Source: Candidatus Thorarchaeota archaeon (lineage in GTDB: Archaea > Asgardarchaeota > Thorarchaeia > Thorarchaeales > Thorarchaeaceae). Taken from it: a DNA stretch of 64,000 nt. The stretch's first letter is position 1. The number at the start of each line of letters is the position of its first letter. Location: NCBI GenBank assembly GCA_048882325.1, contig JBHLRS010000004.1:49628-113627 (forward strand), given 5' to 3'. Positions 18,275-18,826 of the stretch are shown piece after piece. A model generated the notes under the pieces. The model had not been told where the DNA came from and searched no databases. It saw nothing but the letters and a program-made list of their open reading frames with translations. A program made the position numbers and the translations under genes.

Positions 18275-18826
18275 TCAGAGACGTTGAAGTTTGGTTAGCA
18301 GAGCCTTCTTCTCATCGACCTCAACTTCTGAGGGGTCCACAACCATTCCAGCCTCATGGGTTTCAATTCTCACTTCTACACCTGAGTGCTTCACACTTTT
18401 GATTCCGTTGCTTGATAGTGCACGGACACGAAGCTGAGTGGTGTTGAACTCGGTCTTATCAGAAGTTTCCACTGCAATGGACTCTCGTCGTAGCTTAATC
18501 TTCGATATTCGGACCTGTTCTTTGAGCTCAGCTACTTGAACTTGCAATTCCTTTCGTTCAGAACTCTCTTGTTCCAATTGGTCTTTTAATTCATCATGAG
18601 TTGTGCGAGGTACAAACTCCTTGGTCTTGTCAATCCATTTGACAATTGTTCCATCAAACTTTCGAGTTGTACTTACTTGCTCAAGAGCTTTCAAAACAGC
18701 AATGACATCATAGACACGCCGCTTTGGAGTGTCCAGTCGCTCAGCCAGGATATCACTCCTAATCCCCTCATCCCCACACTCCTTGAGAACTCTGACTGAC
18801 TCCTTGGCCAGATCTACTAACTTCAA
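18275..18826 (-). CDS. E2F/DP-family winged-helix DNA-binding protein with a C-terminal coiled coil
   Basis: KRRVYDVIAVLKALEQV....IVKWI closely matches the E2F/DP recognition helix and wing (RRRVYDALNVLMAMNII....IKWIG in DP; RRIYDITNVLEGI in E2F). A long heptad coiled coil follows (ELKDQLEQESSERKELQVQVAELKEQVRISKIKLRRE). Confidence 0.55.
   Translation of the reverse strand: MKLVDLAKESVRVLKECGDEGIRSDILAERLDTPKRRVYDVIAVLKALEQVSTTRKFDGTIVKWIDKTKEFVPRTTHDELKDQLEQESSERKELQVQVAELKEQVRISKIKLRRESIAVETSDKTEFNTTQLRVRALSSNGIKSVKHSGVEVRIETHEAGMVVDPSEVEVDEKKALLTKLQRL

Follow-up and report, generated by a model that had tools for sequence, protein, structure and literature searches.

Gene and domain organization of the E2F-like protein

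The stretch analyzed here (the window) comprises 64,000 nucleotides (nt) of contig JBHLRS010000004.1 of a Candidatus Thorarchaeota archaeon. On its minus strand it carries a small gene encoding a protein with an N-terminal winged-helix (wH) domain of the type found in the eukaryotic transcription factors E2F and DP, a central coiled coil and a C-terminal beta domain. This protein, called here the E2F-like protein, is 100% identical to the NCBI entry [quoted passage not shown], for which a match to Pfam family PF02319 had already been precomputed. The gene is flanked by a convergent gene for a cyclophilin-like protein and by a divergent gene for a P-loop protein. Features of the locus are summarized in Table 1.

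Table 1. Features of the E2F-like gene, its product and the adjacent DNA (positions in the window; aa, amino acids; AF2, AlphaFold2)
Feature	Position	Strand	Details	Basis
E2F-like protein, complete coding sequence	18275..18826	-	183 aa; TTG start; stop codon 18275-18277	Open reading frame list
E2F/DP-type wH DNA-binding domain	18629..18826	-	aa 1-66	Pfam, hhalign, AF2
Recognition helix with RRxYD	18686..18724	-	aa 35-47, KRRVYDVIAVLKA	
Long helix with heptad (coiled-coil) register	18485..18607	-	aa 74-114; clear a/d positions 80-112	
Family-specific C-terminal beta domain	18329..18463	-	aa ~122-166; KTEFNTTQLRVRALS..GVEVRIETHEAGMVVDP	
Short C-terminal helix	18281..18313	-	aa 172-182	AF2, pLDDT ~71-74
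Shine-Dalgarno-like site	18831..18838	-	TGGGGTGC; ~5 nt upstream of the TTG start	
TATA-like box	18897..18902	-	TAAATA; ~-76 from the start codon	
Cyclophilin-like gene (PF04126)	17881..18270	+	129 aa; convergent; its stop codon lies 4 nt from that of the E2F-like gene	
P-loop protein gene	19177..20511	+	444 aa; divergent upstream; common 350-nt intergenic region	

An E2F/DP-type wH at the N-terminus had been proposed in a preliminary description of this stretch, and the proposal was borne out. Family PF02319 (E2F_TDP) matched residues 7-64 (model positions 9-63 of 65) at 32 bits (E=1e-7), where the gathering cut-off is 25.7, and was the sole Pfam wH family to exceed its own curated cut-off. 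The profile search did not place the domain in another wH family: neither TrmB (PF01978) nor MarR gave a Pfam match, even at E<=10. E2F_TDP was also matched by all 17 diverse family members searched (best E=2.5e-10), and was the top family in each of them. Comparison with 44 non-redundant eukaryotic E2Fs by hhalign yielded a probability of 98.1% (E=9e-14; query residues 6-113 against E2F positions 2-101), the aligned span continuing from the wH into the coiled coil. When only the wH was compared, the E-value was 1.7e-13, which none of 40 shuffled controls equalled. An exhaustive search of 1.84 billion representatives with the Asgard profile recovered eukaryotic E2Fs bearing both E2F_TDP and E2F_CC-MB, while a family-profile search of the PDB found E2F8 (5.7e-6) and E2F4 (0.03), with the alignment running through the RRxYD motif. 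Further PDB matches, to the engineered proteins OR276/OR277 (E ~1e-4 to 1e-5), trace to a short RKF.GT..W string that forms part of a designed repeat; they were judged to be due to chance.

Both strings quoted in the preliminary description are present, KRRVYDVIAVLKALEQV at residues 35-51 and IVKWI at residues 61-65. Residues 35-40 read KRRVYD and align to RRIYD of E2F8 and E2F4 in the PDB searches; R36, R37, Y39 and D40 (the RRxYD motif), together with W64 of the wing, are invariant in 56 Asgard sequences. Structure prediction, which had been suggested as a check, gave a canonical wH (helices 3-17, 24-31 and 35-47, strands 51-56 and 59-64) with a predicted local distance difference test score (pLDDT) of ~90. 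The modelled fold alone does not distinguish E2F from other wH proteins, and fold searches ranked MarR, ArsR and Z-alpha-type wH proteins first, with E2F not at the top. Profile and motif comparisons show that the wH is homologous to the DNA-binding domain of eukaryotic E2Fs, with the RRxYD motif kept.

The wH is followed by a coiled coil, as had been noted, although not by one of the ~70 residues originally ascribed to it. The segment is real and spans ~33-41 residues: the helix of residues 74-114 was predicted by AF2, from an alignment of 56 sequences, with pLDDT up to 97, and family-averaged hydropathy revealed an unbroken 3-4 heptad register confined to L80-L112 (~4.7 heptads; spectral peaks at 3.5 and 7/3 residues). 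Aligned with the coiled-coil segment of E2F by hhalign, this helix scored 20.0, against a mean of 6.8 and a maximum of 12.9 in 40 shuffled controls. Because shuffling destroys heptads, this score shows a coiled coil at an equivalent position and not homology.

The description of the C-terminal part as a coiled-coil tail overlooked a conserved beta domain, which accompanies the wH more constantly than the coiled coil does. A linker of low model confidence (residues 114-121) connects the heptad helix to this domain, whose four strands (residues 133-136, 142-147, 152-156 and 161-164) were predicted with pLDDT 71-91; an initial single-sequence AF2 model, with pLDDT <50 at residues 116-165, was superseded by the model on the 56-sequence alignment. 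The domain is as conserved as the wH, displays the motif KTEFNTTQLRVRALS..G.EV.IETHE.GMVVDP with many invariant columns across Thorarchaeota, and is retained across the Asgard lineages, including members at 21-35% identity. It was found in no other protein context among the 1.84 billion representatives, at the sensitivity of HMMER. The helix of residues 172-182 is conserved in Thorarchaeota, and variable or absent in distant members.

Distribution and variants of the family

The preliminary description regarded archaeal relatives of E2F/DP as only sporadic, which proved inaccurate. Relatives of the E2F-like protein were identified in Thor-, Hel-, Hod-, Hermod-, Loki-, Odin-, Baldr-, Jord/Frey-, "Ran-", Asgardarchaeia and Heimdall-group metagenome-assembled genomes (MAGs). 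A scan of one genome per GTDB species returned 93 confirmed matches, the best 80 loci of which were examined. All 80 are archaeal, and the records that bear a lineage name are Asgard-affiliated, with the exception of one MAG labelled Candidatus Deferrimicrobium. Each of these 80 loci comes from a separate assembly, i.e. there is one locus per genome, and the set includes a closed chromosome of 2.58 Mb. The family is restricted to Asgard archaea, spread over their lineages and usually present in a single copy.

No second E2F-type open reading frame (ORF) was detected in the 64-kb window, and no DP-type partner was seen either in the window or among the best 80 of the 93 species loci, although a paralog with a divergent recognition helix would escape the scan pattern.

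In the Heimdall group the homologs are shorter (116-137 aa) and their wH is joined almost directly to the beta domain, without a coiled coil (P0141, P0135, P0142, P0144, P0146, P0150, P0153 and P0156; loci L088 and L089). A profile of the C-domain alone matched their C-termini with 16-28 bits, while a coiled-coil profile matched nothing. Since these forms consist of the wH and the beta domain, it is these two domains that make up the constant core of the family, and the coiled coil is a lineage-variable insert.

Some of the relatives are labelled "E2F family transcription factor" by NCBI. The automated names given to orthologs by JGI (P0016, P0017, P0043, P0055, P0203 and P0205) conflict with one another, i.e. 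"CTP-dependent riboflavin kinase", "regulator of replication initiation timing", "sugar-specific transcriptional regulator TrmB" and [quoted passage not shown], and probably reflect generic winged-helix or coiled-coil similarity. Two other proteins of ~180 aa, P0167 (180 aa, on a 694-nt contig) and P0329, show a match to E2F_TDP and a genuine match to E2F_CC-MB. Their size equals that of the Asgard proteins, and their contigs (618-694 nt) are too short for a eukaryotic or other source to be recognized.

Gene start, neighbouring genes and upstream DNA

The TTG start codon is preceded immediately by an in-frame TAG stop codon. Its assignment is supported by the conservation of the Shine-Dalgarno-like site and the TATA-like box among orthologs: of 65 non-identical upstream regions of orthologs, 53-55 have TGGGGTGC at the matching position, and 46 have TAAATA within the -80..-71 bin, in a conserved block of the intergenic alignment. 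To judge from the DNA, these two putative signals count in favour of a real, expressed gene. Many database models of orthologs (P0026, P0044, P0108, P0118 and others) have an N-terminal extension of 12-60 residues. These extensions terminate in a conserved "WGA" or "RGA", which is the translated Shine-Dalgarno-like TGGGGTGC (window positions 18827-18840), and the extended models therefore begin too early.

Downstream of the TATA-like box, in the 5' untranslated region (~-50 to -25; window positions 18850-18880), there is a conserved inverted repeat, GTGCTC-N4-GAGCA. It resembled a covarying hairpin, an appearance that did not hold, as RNAalifold gave no consensus structure on 21 sequences.

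The gene for a cyclophilin-like protein (Pfam Cyclophil_like, E=4.4e-11 for the protein of the window) is a nearly constant neighbour of the E2F-like gene. Of the 85 loci with sufficient sequence (loci L001-L086), 81 have a gene of this family, encoding 127-133 aa, next to it; in 76 of these the two genes converge, separated by a median of 13 nt, and in the other five the neighbour lies upstream in the same direction. Adjacency has thus survived a change of orientation, and its conservation in two orientations is counted as evidence for a functional linkage. The linkage is missing in the two Heimdall-group loci examined, where the protein lacks the coiled coil, and in L087. The only PDB match of the cyclophilin-like family is the "hypothetical protein" 2nnz (E=0.021).

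In Thor and Hermod genomes (~66 loci), the upstream neighbour is invariably the P-loop gene, in divergent orientation. Its product surpasses the E2F-like protein in conservation (77-97% identity over the aligned part). It bears a weak similarity to cyclic 2,3-diphosphoglycerate synthetase (PDB 9sxb, E=1.3e-5) and gives a weak cobW match. On the other side, downstream of the cyclophilin-like gene, two adjacent and slightly overlapping genes encode proteins with von Willebrand factor type A (VWA) domains (406 and 380 aa; window positions 15496-17797, minus strand); the ORFs of 373 and 883 aa that precede them have no Pfam match.

Sites similar to the E2F consensus TTTSSCGC, which the preliminary description had proposed to look for, were not enriched. 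By sequence counts, TTTSSCGC occurs 5 times in the window (3.4 expected), TTSSCGC likewise shows no enrichment there, and canonical sites are not enriched upstream of the orthologs. The intergenic region (18827-19176) contains three conserved blocks centred on a T-run-CG-A-run palindrome with the consensus TTTTTCGAAAAATC (e.g. TTTCGAAA at 19014-19021, as well as 19136-19145 and 18938-18949). Of 68 Thor upstream regions, which are related by descent, 51 have a TTTTCGAAAA-like palindrome, where shuffles gave a mean of 10.9. The TTTCGAAA palindrome shows no enrichment elsewhere, either over the window as a whole or in front of the cyclophilin-like gene, and is therefore not assignable to the E2F-like protein or to the other gene flanking the intergenic region.

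A different palindrome, GGCGCC, fits the E2F core SGCGCS. Three separate non-Thor lineages have it in the DNA preceding the E2F-like gene. It was found in 5 of 16 regions (shuffle mean 0.3, maximum 2), at -221 from the start in L081/L084, at -130 in L083/L085 and at -22 in L086, in DNA of 24-38% GC. L081/L084 and L086 also have the 10-mer GGCGCCAGCA in common. In the Thor genomes GCCGCCGG is conserved near -30 instead of GGCGCC. The possibility that the GGCGCC matches are tRNA ends was ruled out, as ARAGORN detects no tRNA there. These candidate sites are a lead and not a result.

Predicted function and relation to E2F, DP and other regulators

We consider it probable (about 0.7) that the gene is the Thorarchaeota ortholog of a small, Asgard-only family that combines an E2F/DP-type wH with a family-specific four-strand beta domain, mostly with a coiled coil of 35-40 residues between them, and that its product is a homodimeric transcription regulator. 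The coiled coil would form a parallel homodimer, possibly completed by the beta domains. Each wH may then read one half-site through the RRxYD arginines, which would place the dimer on a palindromic or pseudo-palindromic operator, where it would act as a sequence-specific transcription regulator. A homodimer is favoured because the window contains just one E2F-type ORF and the genomes scanned have one locus each. The beta domain may serve as a module for dimerization or partner docking, for which the protein encoded by the adjacent cyclophilin-like gene would be the best candidate.

The typical eukaryotic E2Fs (E2F1-6; PF02319 and PF16421) share with the Asgard protein a homologous wH with its RRxYD recognition helix and wing tryptophan, followed directly by a coiled coil in the equivalent position and then by a beta-rich region. 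To this extent the preliminary description was right that the protein mirrors the E2F/DP layout. The correspondence stops at the domain order, as the Asgard protein has neither detectable sequence similarity to the marked box nor a DP-like partner in the window and species scans, and it ends at residue 183, 17 residues past the beta domain, with no transactivation or pocket-protein (Rb) binding tail. Its loci also lack the TTTSSCGC enrichment, and some Asgard lineages lack the coiled coil. A typical E2F is further characterized by an obligate heterodimer partner of the DP type and by an intermolecular beta-sandwich between the marked boxes of two chains.

These similarities and differences bear on the possibility that the protein is a full E2F/DP-like module, in which the beta domain would be a highly diverged marked box and the whole would resemble a homodimeric E2F/DP ancestor from before the duplication. 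The domains are collinear with those of E2F (wH, short linker, coiled coil of ~40 aa, beta-rich domain). The length of 183 aa is suggestively close to that of residues 1-197 of E2F4, which contain its DNA-binding domain along with the dimerization/marked-box domain (PMC8684742). The coiled coil and C-domain together scored 22.9 against the E2F CC-MB region, above both the mean (10.9) and the maximum (16.7) of shuffled controls. A forced global hhalign alignment matched the four strands of the Asgard domain to TVIAIKAP, TLEVP, YQIFLKS and PIEVYL of E2F, but with a probability of only 14.5% and a score owed mostly to the coiled coil, so that this pairing is suggestive and not significant. Homology of the C-domain alone to the marked box was negative with both E2F profiles used: with 44 sequences (hhalign), 5 of 40 shuffles scored as high, and with four sequences the score equalled that of reversed controls. 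A profile of the C-domain alone scored below 0 bits on eukaryotic E2Fs, and none of the 17 family members matched PF16421 (E2F_CC-MB) or a DP family at E<=10. The conserved "AYVTxEDI" segment of E2F has no counterpart, and the Heimdall-group forms have no coiled coil at all. We therefore regard a marked-box origin of the beta domain as possible but rather doubtful.

A broader scenario would treat the beta domain as the ancestral marked box. The E2F/DP core would then have been homodimeric in Asgard archaea before eukaryotes, E2F and DP would have emerged by duplication, and the cyclophilin-like neighbour would be a regulatory partner docking on the beta domain, a place later taken by pocket proteins. 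This scenario is speculative, and slightly less likely again than a marked-box origin as such.

Among solved structures, the best sequence match, through the recognition helix, is the atypical E2F8 (E2F7/E2F8; PDB 4YO2; E-value as above), and E2F7/8-like proteins were also recovered by the exhaustive profile search. E2F7/8 function without DP, as the Asgard protein would. They carry two tandem wH domains per chain and no coiled coil, whereas the Asgard protein, with its one wH, would need dimerization. DP1 and DP2 belong to the same Pfam wH family, bear the same motif in the form RRVYD, and likewise have a wH followed by a coiled coil and then a beta domain. However, the PDB searches, which found E2F8 and E2F4, gave no DP chain at E<=10, and there was no DP-family Pfam match. 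By sequence the Asgard family is closer to the E2F branch than to DP.

It was also considered whether the protein is an ordinary archaeal regulator of the TrmB/MarR type, its E2F_TDP match reflecting general wH similarity. In TrmB proteins a wH is followed by a dimerizing amphipathic helix and then by a C-terminal effector domain, the same general layout as in the Asgard protein. Together with this layout, two observations weigh against an E2F-type assignment: weak, sub-threshold TrmB matches occur in 13 of the 17 family members (best 5.2e-6), and the fold searches mentioned above place MarR, ArsR and Z-alpha-type proteins before E2F. Bona fide eukaryotic E2Fs yield equally weak TrmB matches, however, and such matches are therefore a property of the E2F fold and not an argument against membership. 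The E2F-like protein itself has no TrmB or MarR match at E<=10, with E2F_TDP above its cut-off and the best family in every member. RRxYD, a hallmark of E2F/DP, is invariant, the reciprocal search recovers eukaryotic E2Fs, and the C-terminal domain is unrelated to TrmB_C. A TrmB/MarR-type regulator is thus improbable. BusR, with a GntR-type wH, a coiled coil and an RCK_C domain (PDB 7OZ3, 7WJG), has a similar three-part architecture and gave weak whole-length Foldseek matches (ranks 17, 21 and 22); with a root-mean-square deviation of 13-19 A, another wH family and an unrelated ligand domain, the resemblance is no more than an analogy.

A structural or chromosome-associated DNA-binding protein, acting for example in replication or segregation and not as a gene-specific transcription factor, is marginally less probable still, as the JGI names that hint at it, such as "regulator of replication initiation timing", most likely stem from coiled-coil similarity, no Pfam or NCBIfam match indicates such a role, the neighbourhood contains no replication or segregation genes, and the conserved RRxYD base-contact motif argues for sequence-specific recognition.

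According to a review of the archaeal cell cycle (PMC7617429), which refers to Spang 2015, Zaremba-Niedzwiedzka 2017, Liu 2021 and Eme 2023, E2F homologs exist in some Asgard genomes. The central claim of an Asgard E2F homolog is consequently not new, and with E2F names already attached to relatives by NCBI, the earlier view that such a protein is worth documenting is weakened. We found no structural or functional study of these homologs in the searchable literature. Three features may be previously undescribed: the beta domain private to this family, the coiled-coil-free Heimdall forms and the linkage with the cyclophilin-like gene. The analysis provides no evidence of a cell-cycle role for the E2F-like protein.

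The family is now defined beyond a domain label, by a constant core, a lineage-variable coiled coil, a single locus found throughout the Asgard archaea and a near-universal cyclophilin-like neighbour. What merits follow-up is the marked-box question. In eukaryotes E2F/DP drives G1/S transcription, and the origin of E2F/DP bears on how the eukaryotic cell cycle arose.
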